Below, in pieces: positions 850 through 20,345 of a stretch of DNA of 64,000 nucleotides. Numbering within the stretch: the first letter of the stretch is position 1; each line of letters opens with the position of its first letter. Source of the stretch: an uncultured Chloroflexia bacterium (lineage in GTDB: Bacteria > Chloroflexota > Anaerolineae > Anaerolineales > UBA4823); contig CAWELB010000008.1 in the NCBI GenBank assembly GCA_963809805.1, forward strand, positions 568,216 through 632,215, in the 5' to 3' direction. The notes beneath the pieces are model-generated. The model saw only the letters and a list, made by a program, of their open reading frames with translations. It was not told the origin of the DNA and did not search any database. The translations under genes were made by a program, and so were the position numbers.

Positions 850-2339
850 TAGCTAATCCTGGATACCTGGTTTGATCCCCAGTTATTCCCACCGATTAAT
901 TCGCCAAGCTCTTCGACTGTTGTTTTGGTTGCATCCAATGGTTTTGATATCTGACCGCTAAAGAAAACCAAAATACGGTCGCTGTAATTCAATACTTCTT
1001 CCAAATCAGATGATATAAAGATAATTGCAGTACCTTCAGCGCAACGCGCTTTCAGCTTACTCCATATATCAATACCCGATTCAACATCCAGCCCCCGGGT
1101 GGGATGTTCCAGCAGCATAAGTAACAAAGAGTCCTTTAGCAACGCCAACAAGGCACGTTGTTGGTTGCCACCTGAAAGCATCTCTACATGGGTCGAATCA
1201 CGTCCCCGAATGTTATATTCCAGGATACGCTGGTTACAAACTTTTTGTGCTTGCTTTTGGTCGATAAATAAAGCTCGATTATCGTCTAAAAGTGAAAAGT
1301 GCTCACTCAAGGATAATCCAGGAATTAAACCTTCCTCCATTCTTGCTGCTGGTAAATATGCTACACCTTTCTGCAAGAAAGCGCGATAAGGGTTCCCCAG
1401 CATGGATTCATCTCTGATATAGAGTTCCCCACCCACGGGGCGCACCAGGCCAGCACATGCCCGTAAAAAAAGAGTCTGTCCACTTCCTTCCATACCTGCC
1501 AAACCAACAACTTCTCCTTCGCAAATCTCAACACTAATATCTTTCATTTTTAGCCGATAATCTTCCAAGCTTAAATTTTTGACCTTGAGCACTGGTTGTC
1601 CGGGTGGTATCTTCTGACGTTCATCTTTAAGGACCAACTTTCCAAACATTAGCGAGATCAGTTCCTCGGGATTTAAAGGGGCATCCATTTCCCCCACCAG
1701 CTCCCCCACGCGTAAGACGGCTACCCGATCACAAAGATCTCCAACATCCTCAAGTTTGTGAGAAACAAATATGATAGTTTTCCCGTCAGAGGCTAGCTTC
1801 CTTAGCGTGGAAAATAGCTTCTTCTTTTGGGGTGCGCTAATTCCTGTGGTGGGTTCGTCCATGATAAAAACTTCAGCTCCCAACCATAGCAAGCGCAAGA
1901 TTTCTAGCTGTTGGCGTTCACCTACCGTCAGTGCATCTACATAATTATCAGGATCAATATCAAAATCAAATTCACGGCAGCTATTCAAGAATTCTTTTTT
2001 TACTTGTTTCCGGTCTGGGAATATTTTCCCCGGAGCACCCATCAGGAAATTATTCAAAACCTGCATGGGTGGAAAATCTAAGGGATCCTGATGCAGCATA
2101 CCAATTCCGTGGATAATGGCATCTGCAGGAGAGAGGATTACCGCCTCTTTCCCATCCAGGAAAATCTCTCCCCGGTCTGCTTGATAAAATCCGGAGAGGA
2201 TTTTCATTAGAGTGCTCTTACCAGCACCATTTTCTCCAAGAATTCCTTGGATTTTTCCCGAACGAAAAGTAAGATTTAGTCCCTTATTCGCGTAAACTGG
2301 ACCGAAGCTTTTATGGATTTCGCGTAGCTCAACATTCAT
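849..2339 (-). CDS. ABC transporter ATP-binding protein, two ATPase domains (nucleoside/CUT2 type)
   Basis: GENGAGKST Walker A, MDEPT, second-domain LSGGNQQ. Start moved to ATG 2339 (MNVELREIHK) because the upstream extension is a hairpin. Confidence 0.92.
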   Translation of the reverse strand: MNVELREIHKSFGPVYANKGLNLTFRSGKIQGILGENGAGKSTLMKILSGFYQADRGEIFLDGKEAVILSPADAIIHGIGMLHQDPLDFPPMQVLNNFLMGAPGKIFPDRKQVKKEFLNSCREFDFDIDPDNYVDALTVGERQQLEILRLLWLGAEVFIMDEPTTGISAPQKKKLFSTLRKLASDGKTIIFVSHKLEDVGDLCDRVAVLRVGELVGEMDAPLNPEELISLMFGKLVLKDERQKIPPGQPVLKVKNLSLEDYRLKMKDISVEICEGEVVGLAGMEGSGQTLFLRACAGLVRPVGGELYIRDESMLGNPYRAFLQKGVAYLPAARMEEGLIPGLSLSEHFSLLDDNRALFIDQKQAQKVCNQRILEYNIRGRDSTHVEMLSGGNQQRALLALLKDSLLLMLLEHPTRGLDVESGIDIWSKLKARCAEGTAIIFISSDLEEVLNYSDRILVFFSGQISKPLDATKTTVEELGELIGGNNWGSNQVSRIS

Positions 2340-7580: not shown

Positions 7581-9365
7581 TTATTCTAGAACCGGGATAA
7601 ATTCAAACCGATTGACATCTACCAATCCAAGATCCGATATACGTAGCTCAGGAATGACTACCAGGGCCAGTAAGCTCAATTGCATATTCGGATTGTTCAG
7701 CTGGCAGCCACATGCCTTAAACCCATCCAGGACAGTCTTCGCTTTCTTTGCTACGATCTCAGCGCATTCATTCGACATTAACCCCGCTATGGGGAGCTCT
7801 ACTTGCCCCACGATTTCCCCATTTCGAACTACAATCTGCCCTCCTCCCAATTTAGCCAGCTCATTGGCTGCTTTGGTCATATCCGCATCATTCGTTCCAA
7901 CCACGATCATATGGTGGCTATCGTGTGCAACGGTTGTAGCGATTGCACAGGGGGTGTTGAACCCAAAACCTGTGACCAGACCTACTTGTACACCACCAGT
8001 TGCTTTATGCCGTTCCACTACTGCGATTTTGGCAAGGTCACGCCCCATATTCGCTTGAATTTCACCTGCTTTTGTTTGTACTGATAATCGTAAATGCCGC
8101 GTCGGAGCCTGGTTTTCAATAATTCCAATTACATTAGCAGTGTAACTTCCTTCGTCTGGAGCAATCAACCGAAAATCATTCACAGTTAATGGATGCCCTA
8201 TATGCACCGAATCGACCGACCAGTCAGGATATGGATAGTTTGGCAGCTCAATGGATATGCTTCCCTTTTCGCTGATCATCTTACCTTTAGCAATCACAAT
8301 TTCAGCTTTGAGAGTGGATAAATCACTCGTAATCAGAATATCACCATATCTGTCCGGAGCGATCATGCCAACATCGTGAGCCACCCCAAAATGTTCGGCA
8401 GGATTAATAGTTACCATCTGAATCGCAGTCAAAGGTTCCAACCCATGAGAAATTGCTTCCTTGACGGCTCTATTCACATGCCCTTCATCCACCAAGGTTT
8501 CACAATGTGAATCGTCTGTGCACAGGATAAAATGCCTGGGATCCATCCCTTGCTCGGTGACTGCCTTTACCTGAGATGCCACATCATGCCAAGCTGAACC
8601 AAAACGCAGCATAGCTTTCATCCCCTGGCGCACCCTCATTACTGCATCTTCCAGGCGCGTTCCTTCGTGATCGTCTTCAGGTCCGCCGGCTACATACCCA
8701 TGGAAAGGTAATCCCAAATCTGGAGAAGCATAATGCCCACCTATCACCTTGCCAGATTTACGGGCTTCAGCCATTTCTGCATGCATCTTTTCGTCTCCCA
8801 GGAATACCCCAGGGAAATTCATCACCTCTCCCAAACCGATCACCCCATCCCAGCTCATTGCCTCCGCCACTTCGGCTGGTCCTAGCGTTACTCCAGGTGT
8901 CTCAAGCCCAGGTGCAGACGGTACGCAGGACGGCATCTGGACCCACACATGGATAGGCTGGACAGACGCTTCCTCGACCATTAATCGCACACCTTTGAGA
9001 CCAAAGACATTCGCAATTTCATGCGGGTCGACGAACATGGCCGTAGTACCATAGGGGATCACCGCTCGGACAAATTCAGTAACTGTTAACATACCTGACT
9101 CAATATGCATATGCCCATCAAGCAACCCCGGTACCAGGAAACGATCATTAGCATCAATTATTTTTGTCTGGTCGCCAATTGTGTGGTCAGCATTTTCTCC
9201 CACGTATGCAATTCTTTCGCCAATAATGGCGATATCCGTTCCTGGGATGATTTCGCCTGACTGAACACATACCCAACGCCCGTTCCTGATAACCAGATCA
9301 GCGGATTTTCTACCCATCGCTACATCCACGAGAGACCTGCTGATTGAAGCGTCAATTGCTCCCAT
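7581..9365 (-). CDS. ade: Adenine deaminase
   Basis: DGHMHIES, DPHEIANV, LGEVMNFPG, DHEG, CTDD, AHDSHH, LPIAGLMS. Confidence 0.93.
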   Translation of the reverse strand: MGAIDASISRSLVDVAMGRKSADLVIRNGRWVCVQSGEIIPGTDIAIIGERIAYVGENADHTIGDQTKIIDANDRFLVPGLLDGHMHIESGMLTVTEFVRAVIPYGTTAMFVDPHEIANVFGLKGVRLMVEEASVQPIHVWVQMPSCVPSAPGLETPGVTLGPAEVAEAMSWDGVIGLGEVMNFPGVFLGDEKMHAEMAEARKSGKVIGGHYASPDLGLPFHGYVAGGPEDDHEGTRLEDAVMRVRQGMKAMLRFGSAWHDVASQVKAVTEQGMDPRHFILCTDDSHCETLVDEGHVNRAVKEAISHGLEPLTAIQMVTINPAEHFGVAHDVGMIAPDRYGDILITSDLSTLKAEIVIAKGKMISEKGSISIELPNYPYPDWSVDSVHIGHPLTVNDFRLIAPDEGSYTANVIGIIENQAPTRHLRLSVQTKAGEIQANMGRDLAKIAVVERHKATGGVQVGLVTGFGFNTPCAIATTVAHDSHHMIVVGTNDADMTKAANELAKLGGGQIVVRNGEIVGQVELPIAGLMSNECAEIVAKKAKTVLDGFKACGCQLNNPNMQLSLLALVVIPELRISDLGLVDVNRFEFIPVLE

Positions 9366-10743
9366 TGACTAACCTCCTGGCAGCGAGATTATGTTTTTCC
9401 ACCAATTTATAAATATCTAAAGTCAAAAGCTTTCCTTCTTTTACGATGTACTTCCCAGCAACAACCGTGTAATCAACTTTCACTGGACCGCAGAAAACCA
9501 CTGCTGCGACTGGATCATGCAGCCCACCCGCATATTCGATCTTGTTTAATTTAATCGCAAAAAAATCACCGCATTTACCCGCTTCAAGTGATCCCAAATC
9601 AGTGCGCCCAAGTACCGCAGCACCTCCTCGTGTTGCGATTTCTAATGCCTGCCTAGCTGTCATAATTGGCAGTGATTCTCCGCCTGATTTTGATGCGCCC
9701 ATGAGTCCAGCCCGAACACGTGCTGCCATCAATGTTTGGCGAGTTTCTTCGAGCAGGTTAGAACCATCATTGCTAGCTGAGCCGTCCACACCCAGGCCTA
9801 CTTTTACACCCGCTTGTAGCATATCCATGGTTGGAGCAATACCAGAGGCCAGGCGCATATTCGAGGTAGGGCAATGCGCCACTCCACTACCTGATTTAGC
9901 ATATTGACCGATCTCATCCAGGTTTACATGCACCGAATGTGCAAACCAAACATCATGACCAAGCCAATCCATCTCACCCATCAAGGCTACTGGGCGCAGA
10001 CCAAATTTCTCTGTGCAAAATACCTCTTCATCCTGAGTTTCAGCCAGATGCGTATGCAAGCGGACGCCATATTGGCGCGCCAACGAGGCACTTGCGCGCA
10101 TTAATTCGGGGGTCACACTGAAAGGTGAACAAGGTGCCAGCACAATCTGAACCATCGCTCCAGGCTTCGGATCGTGATACTCTTCAATCAGCCGCTGAGA
10201 ATCCTTCAATATGAACGATTCGTCTTCAACTACGTGGTCAGGAGGAAGACCACCTTGGCTTTCCCCCAGGCTCATGGAGCCGCGTGATGCATGCAGGCGT
10301 AATCCGATTTCTTTGGCTGCAAATATCTCATCATCCAGGTGAGAACCATTGGGAAAAATGTATAGGTGATCTGAAGCTGTAGTGCACCCTGACAATGCCA
10401 GTTCTGCTAATGCAGTTTGAGTGGATAAAAAAATATCATCTGGTGTCATTCGACCCCAGATCGGGTACAAGGTTTTTAACCAATTGAATAAATTAGCATT
10501 TTGTGCTGCTGGTACAGCACGGGTCAGGGTTTGATAAAAATGATGATGGGTGTTAATTAATCCCGGTAGCACAATATGCCCGGTCAGGTCCAATACTTCG
10601 TCTGCAGTACCTGGTAACTCGTCGGTAATGCCAACCTGTTCAATGAATCCATCTCGAATAAAAAGACCACCTGCAGGAATCTCCCTTCGATGGTCATCCA
10701 TGGTCACTAATATGTGTGCATTTCTAACTAATAGCGTGCCCAT
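9352..10743 (-). CDS. 8-oxoguanine deaminase-like amidohydrolase
   Basis: NTHHHFYQTLTRA, PCSPFSV, HTHLAET, GVDGSASND. Confidence 0.82.
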   Translation of the reverse strand: MGTLLVRNAHILVTMDDHRREIPAGGLFIRDGFIEQVGITDELPGTADEVLDLTGHIVLPGLINTHHHFYQTLTRAVPAAQNANLFNWLKTLYPIWGRMTPDDIFLSTQTALAELALSGCTTASDHLYIFPNGSHLDDEIFAAKEIGLRLHASRGSMSLGESQGGLPPDHVVEDESFILKDSQRLIEEYHDPKPGAMVQIVLAPCSPFSVTPELMRASASLARQYGVRLHTHLAETQDEEVFCTEKFGLRPVALMGEMDWLGHDVWFAHSVHVNLDEIGQYAKSGSGVAHCPTSNMRLASGIAPTMDMLQAGVKVGLGVDGSASNDGSNLLEETRQTLMAARVRAGLMGASKSGGESLPIMTARQALEIATRGGAAVLGRTDLGSLEAGKCGDFFAIKLNKIEYAGGLHDPVAAVVFCGPVKVDYTVVAGKYIVKEGKLLTLDIYKLVEKHNLAARRLVNGSN

Positions 10744-10883: not shown

Positions 10884-11768
10884 TTAGAGTACTCCAGCTT
10901 GAATTTTAGCTGCCCTGACGGTATTTCTCATTAACATGGTAATCGTCATTGGTCCCACCCCACCCGGATATGGTGAAATCCAACCAGCCACTTCTTTTGC
11001 TTCATTGAATGCCACATCTCCCGCCAACCGGTACCCTTTTTCACTTGTGGGATCATCCACACGATTGGTGCCCACGTCAATGACTACTGCACCAGGCTTG
11101 ATCCAGTCCCCCTTCACCATTTCTGGTCTTCCGACGGCTGCGATCAATACATCTGCGCTTCGACAAATACCTGGCAGATCCTTGGAGCGAGAATGGCAGA
11201 TCGTTACAGTGGCATCGCGTTTCACCAATAAGAGTGCGACAGGCATACCGACAATGTTTGATCGTCCGAGAACGACTGCATTTGCGCCTTTCAAGTCAAA
11301 CCCAGTTTGATCGATCAAATAAATGCATCCATCCGGCGTGCAAGGTACGAATAATGGCTCGCGTCCTTTTTGTGCCAGTCGGCCAATATTGATCGGGTGG
11401 AATCCGTCTATATCCTTTTCGATGCTGATCGAGTTCAGAATCTTTTCATCGTTAAGATGATCTGGTAGAGGCAGCTGCACTAAAATGCCGTTGACCTTTG
11501 GGTCAGCATTCAGTTGTTTGACCAGTCCTTCCACTTCAGCTTGTGAGGCCATTTTGGGGAGCTCAAAACCATAAGAAGCAAGCCCATTTTTCTCGCAGGT
11601 TTTCCTCTTCATCTTGACATATTGTTGAGACGCAGGGTTCTCTCCCACCAGGACAGCTGCCAAACCGGGACGAGGTAATCCGTGATTCACCATGTCTTCG
11701 ACATCAGCGGCTATCTCACATAACAGCTTCTCAGAAATTGCTTTCCCATCGATGATCTGCGCAGTCAT
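10884..11768 (-). CDS. folD: Methylenetetrahydrofolate dehydrogenase/cyclohydrolase
   Basis: IIDGK, YVKMK, GILVQLPLP, KDIDGFHP, PCTP, GRSNIVG, PGGVGPMT. Confidence 0.97.
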   Translation of the reverse strand: MTAQIIDGKAISEKLLCEIAADVEDMVNHGLPRPGLAAVLVGENPASQQYVKMKRKTCEKNGLASYGFELPKMASQAEVEGLVKQLNADPKVNGILVQLPLPDHLNDEKILNSISIEKDIDGFHPINIGRLAQKGREPLFVPCTPDGCIYLIDQTGFDLKGANAVVLGRSNIVGMPVALLLVKRDATVTICHSRSKDLPGICRSADVLIAAVGRPEMVKGDWIKPGAVVIDVGTNRVDDPTSEKGYRLAGDVAFNEAKEVAGWISPYPGGVGPMTITMLMRNTVRAAKIQAGVL

Positions 11769-11936
11769 AATCTCTCCTTTTCGTGAAATAGGATCTCAGC
11801 GAATTTACCCACCATGTTGTATGTGATTTTTAGGAATGCCGTTTTTGATTATCCATGAAAATTGGCAATATTACAAGTAACATTAATCCTGAATTCCGGT
11901 AAAATAGCAAATACTGAAGTTAACCAGGAGAATGCC

Positions 11937-12335
11937 TTGAAAAATTATATCCATCGATTAGGTACTGTAGTATTAATTCTTATAATAATATTCCTACTTT
12001 CCGGTTGTAAAAGTGAACAGAATGGCGCGACGAAAGCCGTCGAAGCTTATATTCAAGCTTTGAGTAACAAGGATTCAATCAAGATCAGTAGTCTCTCATG
12101 TGCCGATTGGGAACAAAACGCAATCCTCGAAGTCGATTCGCTGACTGGGGTTGGATCAAAAGTAGCGAACTTGAAATGTGATCAGACCGGGCAGACTGGT
12201 AGTGATACCTATGTTTCCTGCACCGGCACACTTGATCTTGATTACAATGGAGAAGGCCAACAGATCGATTTATCCACCCGCACATATATTGCCCGGCAGG
12301 AAGACGGAGAATGGCGTGTGTGCGGTTACCGCTAA
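11937..12335 (+). CDS. Hypothetical Cys-rich lipoprotein
   Basis: AGGAG precedes TTG 11937; hydrophobic signal with LLSGC lipobox. Confidence 0.7.
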   Translation: MKNYIHRLGTVVLILIIIFLLSGCKSEQNGATKAVEAYIQALSNKDSIKISSLSCADWEQNAILEVDSLTGVGSKVANLKCDQTGQTGSDTYVSCTGTLDLDYNGEGQQIDLSTRTYIARQEDGEWRVCGYR

Positions 12336-12352
12336 CCCATTCGGAAACAGAT

Positions 12353-12472
12353 ATGCTGCGTAGATTATTTACCCGAGAGAATTTATATGCCCTGTTATTG
12401 TGCCTGATCCTGATTGCCATTTTCATTCTGACCGCGGACCAGGCTCCATTGTGGATTTATCAAGGTTTTTAA
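12353..12472 (+). CDS. DltX-like acyl-shuttle small membrane peptide (39 aa)
   Basis: Below the ORF-track cutoff. MLRRLFTRENLYALLLCLILIAIFILTADQAPLWIYQGF*: one TM helix and a C-terminal W-I-Y-Q-G-F like DltX FIYNEF, directly upstream of an MBOAT. Confidence 0.85.
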   Translation: MLRRLFTRENLYALLLCLILIAIFILTADQAPLWIYQGF

Positions 12473-12516
12473 CCCGTCAATGCAGGGTGTGAATTCCTGC
12501 TAACTCCCATAATACT

Positions 12517-13944
12517 GTGTCCTTCTTCACATTAATAATTGTAGTTTGCGCTGCCCTACTAATTGGCTTAGTTGCCAAAGGTACCTGGCGTAGTTGGTGC
12601 TTGATGGTGGCCAGTATCCTGGCAATATATTGGCTACAGCCGGCGACCCCCATTCGTCATCTTGATTTTTGGCTGCCTACTGCTTGTATCATCATCACTA
12701 TCCTGACCTGGCTGATATCACGGCCTAAGGATGTGCTAAATACACGCGTTGATATGCTGACTGGGATGGTCATTACTTCTGTAATCCTTCTAATTAGCTT
12801 GACCCGCTATCTTGGACCGGTTTGCTGTCTGACACCAACCCGCCCACCCACAATATTACAGGTTTGCATTGTCCTTTTAACTGTTTCCATCCTTGCAATT
12901 TTATTGCGGCGCTATGCCACAGGTCGGGTTTTTTGGATCTATGCGAGTATCACCTTGATCATCGGTTTGTTTGTCATCCTAAAATCGGAGACCCTGGCCA
13001 ATTTGATTAGCATTGGTCTTCGATCATTAAATTCTCAATCGGTGGAGCTCGCCTCTGCAGCTGACATTAAATGGCTCGGTTTTTCGTACGTTACTTTTCG
13101 TTTGCTCCACACCTTGCGCGATCGGTTGAGCGGGAGATTACCCGACCTCACATTGAACGAATATGTGACCTATATTATATTTTTCCCAGCCTATACAGCC
13201 GGCCCGATAGATCGCGTCCAGCGCTTCGTTCAAGATCTCCGCCAACCCTTTCGCCCTACCATAAATTCGACACTCAATGGTGGAAAAAGGATATTGTTGG
13301 GAATTTTTAGTAAATTTGTCCTGGCAGATGGTCTGGCCCTCATCGCATTGAGTAACATCAATTCAAGCCAGGTAAAATCTGTAGGTTGGTTATGGGTATT
13401 GCTATATGCGTACGCTTTCCGTATTTTTTTTGATTTTTCCGGTTATACGGATATCGCCATAGGCATGGGCCAGCTCCTAGGGATCCAGCTGCCTGAAAAT
13501 TTTGAGCGTCCGTATCTCAAACAAAACCTGACTTTGTTTTGGAATAGCTGGCACATCACCCTGGCACAGTGGTTCAGAGCATACTTTTTCAATCCACTTA
13601 CCCGATCATTACGCACTAACCCCCGCAATATACCTTTACCTCTGATAATTTTCATTGGTCAGTTAAGCACATTCATACTGATTGGTCTATGGCACGGGAT
13701 CAGCTGGAATTTTGCGATTTGGGGAGCCTGGCATGGTTTGGGGCTCTTCATACACAATCGTTGGTCAAATATAACGAAATCGAGCTCATCAAAATTAGAT
13801 AACCACCTTCGTTTGAAGAAAATGCTTGACCTTAGCGGTGTATTGATTACCTTTAACTATGTTAGTTTAGGATGGGTATGGTTTGCTTTATCCACTCCAG
13901 CGCAATCTTGGAATACTTTTCTAAAATTATTTGGGCTGGTATAG
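12517..13944 (+). CDS. MBOAT-family O-acyltransferase (DltB/AlgI-like)
   Basis: LGFSYVTFR, FFPAYTAGPIDR, FDFSGYTDIAIG, PENFERPY, FWNSWHITL, GLWHG with the catalytic His. Confidence 0.95.
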   Translation: MSFFTLIIVVCAALLIGLVAKGTWRSWCLMVASILAIYWLQPATPIRHLDFWLPTACIIITILTWLISRPKDVLNTRVDMLTGMVITSVILLISLTRYLGPVCCLTPTRPPTILQVCIVLLTVSILAILLRRYATGRVFWIYASITLIIGLFVILKSETLANLISIGLRSLNSQSVELASAADIKWLGFSYVTFRLLHTLRDRLSGRLPDLTLNEYVTYIIFFPAYTAGPIDRVQRFVQDLRQPFRPTINSTLNGGKRILLGIFSKFVLADGLALIALSNINSSQVKSVGWLWVLLYAYAFRIFFDFSGYTDIAIGMGQLLGIQLPENFERPYLKQNLTLFWNSWHITLAQWFRAYFFNPLTRSLRTNPRNIPLPLIIFIGQLSTFILIGLWHGISWNFAIWGAWHGLGLFIHNRWSNITKSSSSKLDNHLRLKKMLDLSGVLITFNYVSLGWVWFALSTPAQSWNTFLKLFGLV

Positions 13945-13953
13945 CTGGTAAAA

Positions 13954-15087
13954 ATGTCTGAAGTATCAACTACGAAGAATTTTTCATTACTGCGGGTAAT
14001 GGTCAAAGGCATTTTACTCTTCTTGCTGATCAACCTTATTTTTGCTCCATTGGCGCCACTTTCAGCTCTCGGTAAAATATCAGCCTATAACCTCTTCTTT
14101 CCTGGGCGCGTCCGTTTACCCTATGGTGAGAACCCCGAACAAGCCTACAACCTGAGTTTATATAACCTCGAAGCCATGTTTGCCTCCCATGAATTGACAG
14201 CAGGACATAAACCCGCCAATGAATTTCGGGTGCTTCTCATCGGCGATTCCTCAGTATGGGGCTATCTCTTGAAACCTGAAGATACATTATCAGCTTATAT
14301 AAACACAGCTGATCTGACAACCAAAGACGGAAGGTTGGTTCGGGCATACAACTTGGGTTATCCGACCCTCTCGCTCACCAAAGATCTGTTGATTCTCGAT
14401 GTTGCAATGCAGTACCAACCGGACTTAATTATTTGGTTAATCACCCTTGAATCACTGCCACATACCAAACAGCTGGATTCACCTCTCGTGCAAAATAACC
14501 CGACCAGGGTTCGTGATCTAATCACTCGTTTTGACATTAACCTCGACCTCCATGATTCCAACTTTGTGACTCCAAATTTCCTTGAATCCACCCTGGTGGG
14601 AGAACGCCGAGCGTTGGCTGACCTCCTTCGCTTGCAAATCTATGGCATCATGTGGGCCGCTACCGGAATTGATCAATACTACCCGGCATCCTATGAGCCT
14701 CCCCAATCAGACCTGGCCTTGGATGAATCTTTCCACGGTTTGCTTCCTCCGATATTGCGTTCTGAAGATTTATCGATGGAGATTTTGATTGCTGGGCAGA
14801 GAATGTCTGGAGAAATACCCATCCTTTATGTAAATGAGCCCATTTATATCAGCCACGGGGAAAACTCCGATATCCGGTATAATTTCTTCTACCCAAAATG
14901 GGCCTATGACCAGTATCGTTCACTCTTGGAAAATACTTGTCAGGAGCAAAGCTGGCAGTGTTTGGATGAATGGAACCTTGTGCCATCCGCAGAATTCACC
15001 AATAGTGCCATTCATATGAGCCCAATCGGGACGAAACTTTTAGCCACCGAGCTCGGACGGTCAATAATTTCCTTATCCAACCCCTGA
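13954..15087 (+). CDS. Membrane-anchored SGNH-fold protein (DltD/AlgJ-like acyltransferase)
   Basis: N-terminal TM, LLIGDSS block I, AYNLG block II, C-terminal FTNSAIHM. Confidence 0.7.
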   Translation: MSEVSTTKNFSLLRVMVKGILLFLLINLIFAPLAPLSALGKISAYNLFFPGRVRLPYGENPEQAYNLSLYNLEAMFASHELTAGHKPANEFRVLLIGDSSVWGYLLKPEDTLSAYINTADLTTKDGRLVRAYNLGYPTLSLTKDLLILDVAMQYQPDLIIWLITLESLPHTKQLDSPLVQNNPTRVRDLITRFDINLDLHDSNFVTPNFLESTLVGERRALADLLRLQIYGIMWAATGIDQYYPASYEPPQSDLALDESFHGLLPPILRSEDLSMEILIAGQRMSGEIPILYVNEPIYISHGENSDIRYNFFYPKWAYDQYRSLLENTCQEQSWQCLDEWNLVPSAEFTNSAIHMSPIGTKLLATELGRSIISLSNP

Positions 15088-15090
15088 TTT

Positions 15091-16164
15091 ATGATCCTAC
15101 CTACGAAATCAAAATTTTTTCTCTACTCTACAGTTCTTTTTTTCTACTCGATATCAGTCGTATTGGTAGCTTGCTTAAATGATCAATCCACACCAGGAAG
15201 CATTTCTAAAAATCCAATTCCCTCTTCCAGTGAACCTACCGGCGCTTTAATCCTATCCACGGTTGATCCTACCCAAGACAATCCGGGATCTCCGATACCT
15301 ACTCAGATTATTACCCAACCACCTACAATTACAGGGGAAACATTCACTCCTCAAGCATTCTCTACACCTCTGGCGATCACTCCCACTGCGTTATCGCCTG
15401 GTGATTGGATGTCTTTGCCTGTCATACCAGTAGTGAGTCAAAATTCACGAGAAATCTACCTGCGTGGGATTGAATTGGGAAATAATCCGCATGCCTTCTC
15501 CAAAATTGGAGATTGTCAAAGTATAACCACTTATTTCCTGAGTTATTTTGACAAGCCTGGTTTATATAATTTGGGAGATTATTCTTCATTGCAACAGACG
15601 ATCGATTGGTATGAAGGGTCATTTTCTCGTGACAGCCTGGCAGTGAAAGGTGGCTTTAATGCTGCTGCCATTCTCTCACCTTTGCGCGCTGACCCGAAAC
15701 AATGCAATTCTAGCGAAAACCCGATTGAATGTGAATTCCGCCTTAATCGTCCTAGCCTAGCCATCATCAGCCTGGAAGAATGGTGGGCAGGCCACCCGGA
15801 AAATTACGAAACATATATGCGCAGGATAATCGAGTATGCTATCAAACAGGGAGTAGTACCAATCATCACTACTAAGGCTGATAATCTTGAAGGAAATAAT
15901 CTGATCAACCAGACGATTGCCAACCTCGCACAGGAATACGACATACCCCTATGGAATTTCTGGGCAGCTGTACAACCCCTCCCGAACCATGGGCTGATCG
16001 CGATTAATTCTTCAGGTGAGGTAGATATGTTCCACCTTACCCATAGTGAAGGATATTACTATTATAATGATCCGTCCGCAATTCAATCAGGTTGGTCAAT
16101 GCGCAACTTTACGGCACTCCAGGCTTTGGATGCAGTCAGGCAGGGTTTGTTGGAACAACCATGA
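15091..16164 (+). CDS. SGNH-like lipoprotein with GDC in place of GDS
   Basis: VLVAC lipobox, Pro/Thr linker, KIGDCQS, C-terminal DMFH (DxxH). Confidence 0.65.
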   Translation: MILPTKSKFFLYSTVLFFYSISVVLVACLNDQSTPGSISKNPIPSSSEPTGALILSTVDPTQDNPGSPIPTQIITQPPTITGETFTPQAFSTPLAITPTALSPGDWMSLPVIPVVSQNSREIYLRGIELGNNPHAFSKIGDCQSITTYFLSYFDKPGLYNLGDYSSLQQTIDWYEGSFSRDSLAVKGGFNAAAILSPLRADPKQCNSSENPIECEFRLNRPSLAIISLEEWWAGHPENYETYMRRIIEYAIKQGVVPIITTKADNLEGNNLINQTIANLAQEYDIPLWNFWAAVQPLPNHGLIAINSSGEVDMFHLTHSEGYYYYNDPSAIQSGWSMRNFTALQALDAVRQGLLEQP

Positions 16165-16195: not shown

Positions 16196-16441
16196 ATGAC
16201 AGCTGAGATCATGCAAACCCTTTCCACTTACATTGCAACCCAAATCCTCAAACAACCAAAGCGAGTGCTAAAAATTGATGAGCCATTACTATCCAATGGT
16301 TTGGTTGATTCATTCAGCCTGGTAGATTTATCCCTGTTTATTGAAAAAACATTTAATGTTTATATTGATAACACTGAATTAAATCGTCAAACATTTGACA
16401 CACTTGGTCAGCTCGCGGATCTCATCAAGTCTCGGATGTAA
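16196..16441 (+). CDS. Acyl carrier protein (DltC-like)
   Basis: 81 aa; GLVDSFSLVDL phosphopantetheine site; SD AAGAGG. Confidence 0.9.
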   Translation: MTAEIMQTLSTYIATQILKQPKRVLKIDEPLLSNGLVDSFSLVDLSLFIEKTFNVYIDNTELNRQTFDTLGQLADLIKSRM

Positions 16442-16451
16442 TCATCGCAAT

Positions 16452-18175
16452 ATGCTCACCGTTATGCAAAAGCTACTCCAGCTCAATGATATTGCTCCTC
16501 AGTCTATAGCTGTTCGTCTCCTTTTTAATCAGGAACCGGATCAGGTTATTTCGTATTCCAGATTGATTCACGGTTCAGTTGGTTATACAATGGCTTTGGA
16601 TAATGCGGGCATCCAACCTGGTGAAGTAGTGATTATTATTCTTCAGCATGGAGAAGACCTTCTGTATGCCTTCTTTGGAGCCATCCTGCACGGTTCCATC
16701 CCCGCAATTATGCCCTTTCTCACTGAAAAACTATCGCCTGAGCAGTATCGCCGATCATTAATATCCCTTTTTGAGATCACCTCTCCTGCAGCGGTGGTGA
16801 CATACCCAGAGTTTCTTGAAGAGGTTCAGCTTGCGGTAAAATCAAGCAGCTCGATCAGATCCGTTCTCTCATCCAACCAGATTATTCCTAATTCAGAACT
16901 TAGTTCATTAGAAAAAATATTGGGAATTAATCGGACACCTGAAGACATCGTGCTGCTGCAGCATTCTTCGGGTACAACCGGTTTACAAAAAGGAGTTGCT
17001 TTATCCAATCAGGCAGTATTTAACCAGCTCGAAAGCTATTCCCAAGCTCTCAAACTTAGTCCTTCTGATGTGATCGTAAGCTGGCTTCCCCTTTATCATG
17101 ACATGGGACTGATTGCCGGGTTTCTCTTGCCAATCCTGTTGAATGTACCCCTGATCCTACTTTCTCCATTCGATTGGGTCCGTGCGCCATATAAATTGAT
17201 GCATGCCGTGACTGAATACCATGGCACGCTTTCCTGGTTGCCCAACTTCGCCTATAATTTTTGCGCTCAAAAGATCCGCCCACGCGATCTTGATGGGATC
17301 GATCTATCCACCTGGCGGGCAGTCAGTAACTGTTCTGAGCCAATGTATTGGAAAAGCCACCAGATGTTCCTGGATCGCTTTCAGCCCTATGGGCTACATT
17401 CTTCTGCAATGACCACCTGTTACGCCATGGCAGAGAATGTTTTCGCAGTATCCCAGGGGGTATTAACCAAGCAGTGACAGTTGATCAGATCAGCCAGCGG
17501 AATTTATTAGTCAATCGAATCGCCATTCCATCTACATCAGGTGATGACTCGATCAAAATGCTGTCGGCTGGGCATCCGATAAAGAACACTCTGGTTAGAA
17601 TCCTGGATCAACATCATGCTCACCTACCCGACCGCCAGCTGGGGGAAATAGCTATTTCGAGTGACTGTATGTTGTCTGGTTATTACAATCGCCCGGATCT
17701 GACAACCAAGGCTTTTCATTCAGGATGGTACCTGACTGGTGACCTGGGTTATATCGCGGATGGTGAAATATATATTACGGGTAGAAAAAAGGACATGATC
17801 ATTGTCGGAGGCAAGAATATCTACCCCCAAGACCTGGAGAACCTGGCAAGTGAGGTTAAAGGTGTACATCCAGGGCGTGTGGTTGCATTTGGTGTACCGA
17901 ATGAGCTCACCGGAACTGAAGATGTGGTCATCATTGCTGAAGTGGATACGACTGAAAAAGATTTGATCAATGGAGAAATCGAAAATGATTTGGAAAGCTC
18001 TCCCACGATCGATCAGATTTCGGATGAAATCCGCTCACGTGTCACACGCGGCTCAGATATTGCTTTGCGTAGGGTGAAGCTCGTAAAAAGGGGCTGGCTG
18101 ATTAAGACCAGTAGTGGAAAAATCGCCCGAAATTCAAATCGCGAACGCTACATTACTGAGTTTATGGAAGATTGA
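16452..18175 (+). pseudogene. Fatty acyl-AMP ligase (FAAL), frameshifted at G5 run 17456-17460
   Basis: 5' frame has LQHSSGTTG, SWLPLYHDMGLI, PNFAY and CYAMAE; 3' frame has YLTGDLG, GRKKDMII and KTSSGK. One extra G joins them as AVSQGGINQAV. Confidence 0.85.
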
Positions 18176-20345
18176 TTGACTTCGGTCGCCAAACTGGATC
18201 GAAATCGTAGGCAGGATTTACCACAATCGGATGTCGTTCTACACCGTTTGTTCGCATCACATAGATATCATGATTCCCAGAAAACCAGCTTGTAAATAAC
18301 AACCAGTAACCGTCGAACGAGTAGTTTAAGTCCAGTACCAGCTGAGAGTTAGCCACCTCGACAGGCACCGTGCCCTCTTCTGAATAGGTGACGGCCATTA
18401 AATTGGTGGCACCGGTTGTATCGGATAATACCTGTCTTGTGTATATCACCACAGTACCGTCAGGTGACCATGCCGGTCCTTTGATGATATAGTCCCCTGT
18501 CCCCGAAATGAGACTTCGCCGGTTTTTTCCATCCGGATCCATTACCCAGATCCTGTTATCACTATTAACATAAGCAATCTCTGTTCCATTTGGAGACCAG
18601 GCAGGTTGTGAGATTGCCCTGGTCTCATCATCAACCAGAGACTTGACCGTGTAATCCAGTAAATTCAGTATGAAAATCCCAGGCACCCCCTCCTTGCGTA
18701 ATGACGTAAAAGCAATTTGATTTCCATCTGGAGACCAGCTTGGATCGTAATCACCACCTGGGGCACTCGGCAATGGGATCATTCCGGTGCCATCCGCGTT
18801 AATTATATAAAGACTTGCTCCTGGGTAAGAGCTCAAATGCCTGATGCAAGGTGATATGAATACGATCCTGATCCCATCCGGATCCCATTTTGGCTGACAC
18901 GCTCCCTCGGGGATTTCTGTGATCTGCCTTGGTTCTCTGGTCCCATCGAGATTCATAAGCCAAATTTCCACTACACCAGAGCGATTGGAAGCGAACGCTA
19001 TTTGACCCGCTCCACCCAAAGGCGTTGGAAGTGGGGTTCTTGTTATTGTGGGGGAAGGGGTTAGCGTAGGTGTTAGTGTTTGAAAAGGAGTAACTGTGAT
19101 TGTTGGTGTTGGTGAGTTGAACGTTGTAGGAGTTTGAGATAGGATGCCGATGATAGGCAGTTGAGTGGTAGTTGCTAAGGGCAAAGTAGGGGTCAGGGTG
19201 GGCATTACTCCCGGAGCGATGTACCCGATCATTCGTTTTACCAGGTCAGGTCTGAATGCATAAGTCGCAAATCCACTCAATACCAGCAAAGGTAAAAGGA
19301 TGAATAATAACCAGTCTGCTGATCGTCTTTGATTTTTTAGTGGGACTGGTAATAACTCTAAATCATCGATATCTGGATCAAGCGGGCGAGTAGATCCTTT
19401 TTTCTCCTTACCTGACCCATGACCTTTTTTTGCTCTATCCTTTCTTACTGAACTACTTACCACACCAGGTAATTGATCATGCAATGTGATCGGAGGCGGC
19501 TGCAACACCAATTCCAAAGGTACCTTTCGTCGCGAGATACTCCGGGCTTCCATCAAATCGTATCTCAGTTCATCAGCAGTTTGGTAGCGATCCTTTGGTT
19601 GAATTGCCAGACATTTTTCAATGATCTTTACCACATGATCCGATACTCTGGGGTTGAGTTTTTGGATAGCTGTCAGTTCAACCCGGTTCATAGCCCGATC
19701 AAGTCCATCTTCTGGAACCGCATTGGTCAGAGCACAAAACAGTGTTGCTCCTAGCGAGTATATATCCGATCGGCCATCGGTGCGTGCACTCCCATATTGT
19801 TCGGGTGGCGAATATCCAGGTGTCATCGCCCTCGCACCTGTATGTGTAGCTTCACGCCCCTCCACAACTTTAGCCAGACCAAAATCGACCAGATATATAT
19901 GACCGTGGGGAGTGATTCTCACATTACCGGGTTTAATATCGCGATGCAGGATGACTGGTGTCCGTGTATGCATATACGAAATTGCATCACAAATCGCTAC
20001 TCCAATAATGATCACTTCCTGTTCAGGTAATGGGCCCAACCGATCCAGCCGTTGTCTCAGATCTTCTCCCTCGATGAAATCCATGACCAGATATTGGCCA
20101 AGTGGTTCGATCACAAAATGGTCTGATACACGTGGTAAATTTTGTTGGCGTAGGCTGGCTAGAATTGTTGCTTCCAGGCGGAATTGACGTGCATATTCAT
20201 CGGTGGTGAAAAGATTTTCCTTGAGAGCCACCTCTACGCCCAGGTTCTCATCTATGGCTTTGTACACTGCCGCCATTCCGCCTTGTCCGAGGACCTCGAC
20301 AATGCGGTAGCGATTGTTCAGCAGTGAGCCAGATTCCAATGTCAT
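18162..20345 (-). CDS. Membrane Ser/Thr protein kinase with an extracellular TolB-like (PD40) beta-propeller
   Basis: LGQGGMAAVY, HRDIKPGN, DFG, TPGYSPPEQ; TM helix; Thr/Pro linker; repeated PxWSPDG. Confidence 0.92.
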   Translation of the reverse strand: MTLESGSLLNNRYRIVEVLGQGGMAAVYKAIDENLGVEVALKENLFTTDEYARQFRLEATILASLRQQNLPRVSDHFVIEPLGQYLVMDFIEGEDLRQRLDRLGPLPEQEVIIIGVAICDAISYMHTRTPVILHRDIKPGNVRITPHGHIYLVDFGLAKVVEGREATHTGARAMTPGYSPPEQYGSARTDGRSDIYSLGATLFCALTNAVPEDGLDRAMNRVELTAIQKLNPRVSDHVVKIIEKCLAIQPKDRYQTADELRYDLMEARSISRRKVPLELVLQPPPITLHDQLPGVVSSSVRKDRAKKGHGSGKEKKGSTRPLDPDIDDLELLPVPLKNQRRSADWLLFILLPLLVLSGFATYAFRPDLVKRMIGYIAPGVMPTLTPTLPLATTTQLPIIGILSQTPTTFNSPTPTITVTPFQTLTPTLTPSPTITRTPLPTPLGGAGQIAFASNRSGVVEIWLMNLDGTREPRQITEIPEGACQPKWDPDGIRIVFISPCIRHLSSYPGASLYIINADGTGMIPLPSAPGGDYDPSWSPDGNQIAFTSLRKEGVPGIFILNLLDYTVKSLVDDETRAISQPAWSPNGTEIAYVNSDNRIWVMDPDGKNRRSLISGTGDYIIKGPAWSPDGTVVIYTRQVLSDTTGATNLMAVTYSEEGTVPVEVANSQLVLDLNYSFDGYWLLFTSWFSGNHDIYVMRTNGVERHPIVVNPAYDFDPVWRPKSINLP

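Follow-up and report, generated by a model that had tools for sequence, protein, structure and literature searches.

Introduction

The system reported here centres on a gene for a microprotein of 39 amino acids (aa), which lies in a 64,000-nucleotide stretch of DNA from an uncultured Chloroflexia bacterium (contig CAWELB010000008.1 of assembly GCA_963809805.1; hereafter the window, whose numbering is used throughout). Its closest described counterparts are the Dlt pathway of teichoic-acid D-alanylation in Bacillota and the acyltransferases of the PatA and AlgI type. In the Dlt pathway, as outlined in the passages of PMC12148441 devoted to it, the membrane-bound O-acyltransferase (MBOAT) DltB passes D-alanine from DltC to an invariant tyrosine of the FXYXXF motif at the C-terminus of DltX, and DltX then passes it on to DltD. 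Binding of DltX's C-terminal peptide to DltD is described in the corresponding part of PMC13653941. PatA carries the motif fused to its own polypeptide and, by the account of this enzyme in PMC12148441, auto-acetylates the same tyrosine within it. As presented in the comparative passages of that source, neither a DltX-like microprotein nor a carrier protein belongs to any MBOAT acylation pathway except Dlt.

A preliminary description of the window had proposed that the microprotein is a separate, DltX-like acyl shuttle serving an adjacent MBOAT that has no such motif of its own. This proposal is supported by the conservation of the gene and the selection acting on it, by the complementarity observed among 41 MBOATs, by the similarity of the peptide to fused MBOAT tails and by the presence of a Dlt-like gene set. 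By analogy with the described systems, we regard it as likely that the microprotein is a DltX-like acyl-tyrosine shuttle of a new family, operating in an apparently undescribed Dlt-like pathway. We found no publication on such a cassette in full-text literature searches, although the primary DltX study may contain an earlier mention.

A short gene conserved ahead of an MBOAT gene

Translation of the forward-strand open reading frame (ORF) from ATG 12353 to the TAA at 12470-12472 yields the 39-aa product MLRRLFTRENLYALLLCLILIAIFILTADQAPLWIYQGF, which ends in WIYQGF. The ORF given in the preliminary description is thus correct, and so are the features attributed to its product, namely a basic N-terminus, one transmembrane (TM) helix and a C-terminal aromatic-x-Tyr-x-x-Phe. 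Residues 1-8 include three arginines, and the net charge is +2 over residues 1-10 and -1 after the hydrophobic stretch. This stretch is the only one in the peptide; the 17-residue window with the highest Kyte-Doolittle mean (3.03) begins at residue 11 and is followed by a tail of 12 residues. From hydropathy and charge counts alone, the charge pattern is compatible with an N-in/C-out orientation according to the positive-inside rule. The whole 4.2-Mb genome contains 79,491 stop-to-stop frames with 30 or more aa; nine of them terminate in [FWY]xYxxF, and among these nine a hydrophobic helix precedes the motif only in the 39-aa peptide. The gene directly downstream encodes the sole MBOAT match of the genome.

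The reading frame is open upstream to ATG 12311, a start that would give a 53-aa form and that lies inside the upstream gene (which ends at 12335). In 15 orthologues, the start is found at the 39-aa position or a few codons from it, a stop codon stands right before the ATG in three of them, and GGAGG-type sites are present 6-9 nt 5' of the start in several. Because of these sites and of the stop codons directly before the ATG, the 39-aa start is favoured over ATG 12311. The 53-aa form is the one entered for the window's product in the protein collection, and the ORF has been called by one gene caller. Homologues, where they are named at all, are recorded as 'hypothetical protein', as is the orthologue in the complete genome of Leptolinea sp. 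HRD-7 (hypothetical protein BCY19582.1). The term 'unannotated' used in the preliminary description therefore holds only in part, since thousands of homologues have been listed, as hypothetical proteins, by gene callers. A short-read contig (X1) that spans 11976-12557 shows two letter differences from the window, neither of them within the ORF.

Two checks put forward in the preliminary description, a tblastn search upstream of orthologous MBOATs and a codon-conservation analysis, both gave positive results. A search for MBOAT orthologues in relatives returned a match in 18 of 41 genomes, the window's own genome among them. By tblastn, the peptide was found directly upstream of the orthologous MBOAT in all 14 loci of relatives, with 59-92% identity and always with the ending P[LQ]WIYQGF, so that the terminal YxxF is kept throughout. 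We then obtained 80 loci by scanning species-representative genomes with the MBOAT alignment; nearly all record titles are those of Chloroflexota or Anaerolineae metagenome-assembled genomes (MAGs). The peptide was found in 79 of the 80 MAG loci. Two loci could not be assessed for an intact ORF, one being a contig end devoid of upstream sequence (L100) and the other containing a run of N (L089). In the 78 others the ORF is intact, without exception, and its stop codon comes immediately after PxW[IV]Y[QL]G[FY]. These ORFs encode 33-57 aa, with 60 of them at 38 or 39 aa. The tail tyrosine is present in 78/78 loci, and the terminal residue is phenylalanine in 77 and tyrosine in one.

At the codon level, the Nei-Gojobori method applied to the 15 orthologues gave a mean proportion of nonsynonymous differences (pN) of 0.217 and a mean proportion of synonymous differences (pS) of 0.816, which is a coding pattern; the pN/pS ratio in the other two frames is 0.99 and 2.7. 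Variation affects third codon positions in 38 of 39 columns and second positions in 16 of 39. Synonymous sites are saturated while the peptide sequence is kept, with E9, N10, A13, P32, W34, I35, Y36, Q37, G38 and F39 invariant in 15/15 orthologues. The microprotein gene is a real gene under purifying selection and the constant companion of its MBOAT.

These data bear on two other explanations of the ORF. Its shortness and the weak Shine-Dalgarno match in the window itself could be taken to indicate a chance ORF or a misread untranslated spacer. As far as computation reaches, this idea is refuted by the comparative data: the ORF is kept in every assessable locus, its substitutions are frame-specific and of the coding type, and its family comprises 190 representative clusters, so that a chance origin deserves practically no credence. 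The position of the ORF is also one in which a regulatory leader peptide could be expected, that is, an upstream ORF tuning expression of the MBOAT and encoding a peptide without function of its own. Its stop codon lies 44 nt ahead of the MBOAT start on the same strand, and the corresponding distance to the start of the MBOAT match is -1 to 135 nt in relatives. Nevertheless, strong purifying selection across a bacterial class on a whole TM helix and on an invariant C-terminal hexapeptide would not be expected of a leader. Moreover, no RNA element was detected with Rfam at E<=1 over 11500-13000, and terminator-like sites are not in excess (5, as compared with 5.5 +/- 2.2 in shuffles). A leader function is thus very improbable. 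A promoter scan remained at the shuffle level (17 versus 13.7 +/- 3.3).

Family size and distribution

When 1.84 billion representatives were searched with the family profile, 190 proteins were retrieved at E<=1e-3, including 116 at E<=1e-10. Among the 150 of these 190 representatives that were listed, protein length ranges from 32 to 165 aa and the match reaches the protein C-terminus in 148. The search was unrestricted in length, and no MBOAT-sized (fused) form of the family was present among the same 150. In a word-indexed search, 8,000 proteins were scored, of which at least 5,056 matched at E<=0.01; no Pfam domain is present in any of them. In the ESM Atlas, the nearest clusters are formed by unnamed proteins of 41-42 aa (scores 0.92-0.94); the cluster at rank 11 (score 0.85) has DltX in 15% of its members, which we consider as a lead only.

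Among 401 Chloroflexota genomes sampled evenly over the phylum, 29 were found to encode the microprotein. All 29 belong to the class Anaerolineae, and the microprotein was not found outside this class among the genomes searched. Within the sample, it is carried by 22 of the 24 genomes of one family in the window's order.

The tyrosine motif in cis and in trans

The MBOAT encoded next to the microprotein ends in FLKLFGLV, without an aromatic-x-Tyr-x-x-Phe tail, exactly as the preliminary description had stated. Its best curated match is TIGR04091 DltB, with 216.1 bits, under the equivalog cut-off of 375 bits. All solved structures related to it at E<=1e-3 are of DltB, the best being 8jem and 6bug (E ~3e-44). 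It is thus an MBOAT with DltB as its nearest solved relatives, not a DltB equivalog. The TIGR04091 alignment reaches profile position 376 of 380, which leaves no room for the two extra helices of fused forms. The microprotein, for its part, is a separate ORF with its own stop and not part of the MBOAT polypeptide.

We compared 41 MBOATs for the presence of the motif in cis or in trans: 15 long-tailed proteins, 25 short-tailed ones from Chloroflexota and the DltB of Bacillus thuringiensis. The catalytic-type His393 is invariant in all 41, Neisseria gonorrhoeae PatA and B. thuringiensis DltB included. The 15 MBOATs that continue for 73-139 residues past the point where the window's MBOAT stops all finish in [FL/T][IVL]YxxF, and none has a motif ORF upstream. 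Conversely, the 25 Chloroflexota MBOATs without extension all lack the motif at their own end, and a separate microprotein was seen for 24 of them (23 by script and one, L004, by tblastn), the remaining locus being L100, which could not be assessed. B. thuringiensis DltB likewise has no motif at its own end, its DltX being encoded upstream of dltA.

In a quick maximum-likelihood tree of the 41 MBOATs, the 15 fused forms are located on one side of a single branch, with 99% support in the SH-like approximate likelihood ratio test (SH-aLRT). This tree is unrooted, its single DltB sits on a long branch and its three split groups are unresolved among themselves. One event suffices to produce the pattern, and a single fission or fusion may link the microprotein family, DltX and the fused tails.

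The tails themselves can be compared directly. We built a fused-tail profile from the last 45 residues of 15 motif-bearing MBOATs (paralogues from related Chloroflexota, N. gonorrhoeae PatA, with GFIYANF, and five others). With hhalign, the microprotein profile matched it with a probability of 89.5% (E 2e-6, score 27.6) over 23 columns running to the very C-terminus, with W34, I35, Y36 and F39 placed on F, I, Y and F. None of 120 full column shuffles reached this score (maximum 13.3), nor did any of 120 shuffles restricted to the last 8 columns (maximum 24.8). The true DltX of B. thuringiensis matched the same profile with a probability of 77.7% (E 1.9e-5, score 23.4). Because of these hhalign scores and the shuffle controls, the microprotein family is, in terms of profile similarity, at least as tail-like as DltX. 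Tyrosine and terminal phenylalanine are invariant both in the fused tails of the PatA and AlgI type and in the microprotein. The fused tail differs in that it belongs to the MBOAT polypeptide, where it is borne on two extra helices according to the structural account in PMC12148441, whereas the microprotein has a gene of its own. The two also differ in donor, which is acyl-CoA for the fused forms, as opposed to the carrier protein and ligase encoded in the window's operon.

Other arrangements of the motif were encountered during this survey. In genome G036, from the same order, two loci (L026:2528-2662, reverse strand, and L027, around 1230-1336, forward strand) encode 44-aa peptides ending in ...IVYQGF or ...VLYQGF, directly upstream of MBOATs of 386-388 aa without a motif of their own. 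These peptides have no Pfam match. They stand alone, as the microprotein does, but they differ from it in family and sequence, in the clade of their MBOAT and in their neighbours (a HAD-like hydrolase and a methyltransferase). On plasmid pB218 of Metabacillus sp. B2-18 (L114, 1-2586), the gene for an AMP-binding protein is located directly upstream of that for a fused-motif MBOAT of 503 aa ending in GFIYGGF; some fused MBOATs may thus also be fed by an adenylating enzyme and not by acyl-CoA.

Neighbouring genes

The genes surrounding the microprotein and MBOAT genes are listed in Table 1.

Table 1. Features of the microprotein locus, in window coordinates
Feature	Position	Strand	Evidence or remarks
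Membrane-anchored upstream protein, 157 aa from TTG (true start uncertain)	11862..12335	+	Conserved; weak Rv0361-family match
39-aa microprotein	12353..12472	+	Basic N-terminus, single predicted TM helix (~residues 11-27), tail ADQAPLWIYQGF with invariant Y36
DltB-type MBOAT, 475 aa, without own acyl-shuttle tail	12517..13944	+	PF03062, E 7.4e-22
DltD-like SGNH protein, 377 aa, N-terminal helix anchor, GDSS block I	13954..15087	+	Predicted fold; in 80/80 loci
Second SGNH-fold protein, 357 aa, lipoprotein-type signal (..LVAC), Pro/Thr-rich linker	15091..16164	+	Predicted fold; in 68/80 loci
Carrier protein, 81 aa, phosphopantetheine site S39 in ..LVDSFS..	16196..16441	+	PP-binding, E 2.1e-4; in 56/80 loci
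Fatty acyl-AMP ligase (FAAL)-like adenylating enzyme	16395..18175	+	AMP-binding, E 1.9e-30; two frames (16395-17477, 17348-18175); in 49/80 loci

The two proteins encoded after the MBOAT could be placed only by their predicted structures, since Pfam returned nothing for either at E<=10 and phmmer against PDB sequences gave nothing useful; their fold assignments come from structure models only. In the 377-aa protein, G97, D98 and H354 are invariant and S99 is conserved at 90% or more. Its AlphaFold2 model has a mean predicted local distance difference test (pLDDT) score of 82.8, and Foldseek matches it to GDSL/SGNH proteins (E 3.5e-5). With VIA-align, the model superposes on DltD chain 3bma_B with Z 14.2 and a root-mean-square deviation (rmsd) of 4.8 over 277 aligned residues, and on 6o93 with Z 13.9 and rmsd 5.0 over 273. 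The DltD alignments are the longest in the VIA-align list, with generic GDSL enzymes tied in Z over ~170-190 residues. The model of the 357-aa protein (pLDDT 81.3) has GDSL and TesA matches at E 1e-4 to 1e-3. Its block I reads G140-D141-C142 where SGNH enzymes have G-D-S; C142 and D312 are invariant and H315 is conserved at 90% or more. A cysteine nucleophile in an SGNH fold, if C142 of this lipoprotein acts as one, would be unusual.

The carrier protein has weak NCBIfam matches to DltC and acyl carrier protein models, all under cut-off, and its S39 is invariant in 27/27 sequences. The best NCBIfam matches of the adenylating enzyme are of the FAAL, FadD32 and PRK09192 types, again all under cut-off, and no DltA model is present among the matches listed. 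The true start of this enzyme may fall after the carrier gene. Carrier and FAAL genes are both found downstream in 43 of the 54 loci for which at least 7 kb of downstream sequence is available.

At the other end of the cluster, the upstream protein matches the NCBIfam model for the C-terminal domain of Rv0361-family membrane proteins with 27.3 bits (cut-off 37). A homologue of its gene was detected in 74/80 loci, on the same strand and within 700 nt upstream of the MBOAT in 72/80, and it is probably the first gene of the same operon. The end of the operon is met by a convergent gene (18162-20345, reverse strand), whose product joins a Ser/Thr protein kinase to TolB-like beta-propeller repeats. 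The 212-kb plasmid AP024711.1 of Leptolinea sp. HRD-7, a relative in culture, carries (L110, 6748-9792) a cassette composed of the microprotein gene, recorded as hypothetical, followed by that of the MBOAT; the annotation of the next 7 kb downstream shows neither a carrier nor a ligase gene, and 8348-9792 contains no listed gene.

Relation to DltX

The microprotein shares with DltX a whole set of characters. Each has a gene of its own, which encodes a peptide of ~40-50 aa with a basic N-terminus and one TM helix (a predicted one in the microprotein), and both finish in a short, proline-containing tail with aromatic-I-Y-x-x-F at the extreme C-terminus. Their partner is in both cases a DltB-type MBOAT without its own motif, a carrier protein, a DltD-like SGNH protein and an adenylating enzyme are encoded in both operons, and the two peptides are about equally similar to the fused MBOAT tail.

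There are also differences. No sequence similarity is detectable beyond the tail, in which DltX has phenylalanine at motif position 1 and N-E where the microprotein has tryptophan and Q-G. The dltX gene precedes the ligase gene, whereas the microprotein gene directly precedes that of the MBOAT. The adenylating enzyme is DltA in one case and FAAL-like in the other, and the window's operon has in addition an SGNH-fold lipoprotein with cysteine in block I and a conserved upstream gene. Finally, the hosts are Bacillota for DltX and Anaerolineae (Chloroflexota) for the microprotein.

Several results weigh against a DltX-like shuttle. The Pfam model of DltX, PF12459, does not match the peptide at E<=10, gives no match at its place in a six-frame search of the genome and matches none of 15 family members (cut-off 25 bits). 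The same model recognizes the reference DltX, a 48-aa peptide ending in ...NPFIYNEF from the dltXABCD operon of a B. thuringiensis plasmid, with 60.9 bits (E 8e-17). Between the family and this DltX, hhalign aligned two residues, 'IY' (probability 0.5%), and BLASTP found no match. When the PDB was searched with a profile of the microprotein alignment, the only hits, at E 1-4, were TM segments matched by chance, and DltX was not among them. By the measure of these searches, the microprotein is not a DltX. Furthermore, motif position 1 is tryptophan in 78/78 loci, in contrast to the phenylalanine of the published FXYXXF; phenylalanine is found at this position in two distant representatives of the family (...FLYEGF and ...FIYEGF).

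Two further points of the same kind concern the supply of the acyl group. Of the 54 loci for which 7 kb or more of downstream sequence is available, 11 gave no match to the carrier and FAAL genes beside the cassette, and the donor may differ in these. In the window, the FAAL-like gene is spread over two frames, which would count against the proposed pathway if the gene were broken. The N and C parts of the enzyme are in one frame in 45 of 47 related loci, and in a short-read contig from run X3 (depth 4.3) one more G follows 17455, in the G-run 17454-17458, which would join the two frames. The break is probably a homopolymer assembly error and not the mark of a pseudogene.

The last point is the weakness of the predicted association between the two proteins. 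Prediction of the MBOAT-microprotein complex gave a score of 0.54 (runs 0.54, 0.30 and 0.63), the best of three controls scoring 0.00; at least 84% of contacts are common to the runs and the partner pLDDT is at least 65. For calibration, 58 of 80 solved complexes attained this mark, as did 2 of 110 mismatched pairs, and at 0.60 or under there were only 7 of those 80 together with both passing mismatches. These counts hold roughly, since own alignments were used, and the solved DltB complexes were possibly remembered by the model. The prediction thus offers weak support for a complex.

One may then ask whether the microprotein could be a structural or assembly subunit that binds the MBOAT or an SGNH partner, with Tyr36 never acylated and the acyl group handed straight from the MBOAT to either the SGNH protein or the acceptor. 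Conservation, synteny and a weak complex prediction are compatible with any obligate small subunit, motif position 1 departs from the published motif, and the acylation of Tyr36 is a feature that we infer. However, the most conserved part of the peptide is precisely its six-residue tail, and its tyrosine is exactly as far from the C-terminus as those of DltX and the fused MBOATs. Each system has one copy of the motif, be it in cis or in trans, as expected of an indispensable chemical group. In addition, the tyrosine is the acyl carrier in both systems tested biochemically, according to the portions of PMC12148441 that report on them. We therefore consider a purely structural role unlikely and favour that of an acyl-tyrosine shuttle.

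Proposed pathway and significance

By analogy with the published Dlt and PatAB mechanisms, the following model can be suggested, in which topology, binding, acyl-tyrosine intermediate, type of acyl group and acceptor are all inferred. The microprotein would cross the membrane once, from a cytoplasmic N-terminus to a 12-residue tail on the outside, and would act as a detachable arm that shuttles acyl groups for the neighbouring DltB-type MBOAT. The FAAL-like enzyme would adenylate a carboxylic acid, most likely a fatty acid, and load it onto the 81-aa carrier protein. The acyl group would then be moved through the membrane by the MBOAT, with the help of His393, onto Tyr36 of the microprotein, within W-I-Y-Q-G-F. 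The tail would next swing to the membrane-anchored DltD-like SGNH protein, which, through Ser99, would acylate an extracytoplasmic acceptor. The second SGNH-fold protein, the lipoprotein with Cys142, may join in the final transfer or edit the product.

Read in this way, the locus contradicts the generalization that MBOAT pathways other than Dlt have neither a microprotein nor a carrier protein. It would represent a second family of stand-alone shuttles, unrecognized by Pfam and tied to a carrier protein and a FAAL-like ligase, and would give a functional name to thousands of 'hypothetical' proteins of 38-40 aa. The family also offers a natural test of how essential each position of FXYXXF is, tryptophan being tolerated at position 1.

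For the Anaerolineae, a widespread and little-studied bacterial class, the model predicts an undescribed modification of the cell envelope. It is tempting to go one step further and to suggest that the Dlt-like machine of these bacteria moves a long-chain fatty acyl group, as opposed to D-alanine or acetate, through the membrane attached to a tyrosine, from which it would be esterified to an extracytoplasmic polymer or protein of the envelope. This extension is possible but doubtful. If it proved true, the pathway would be a bacterial counterpart of the MBOAT-dependent lipidation of eukaryotes and a new kind of cell-envelope modification.

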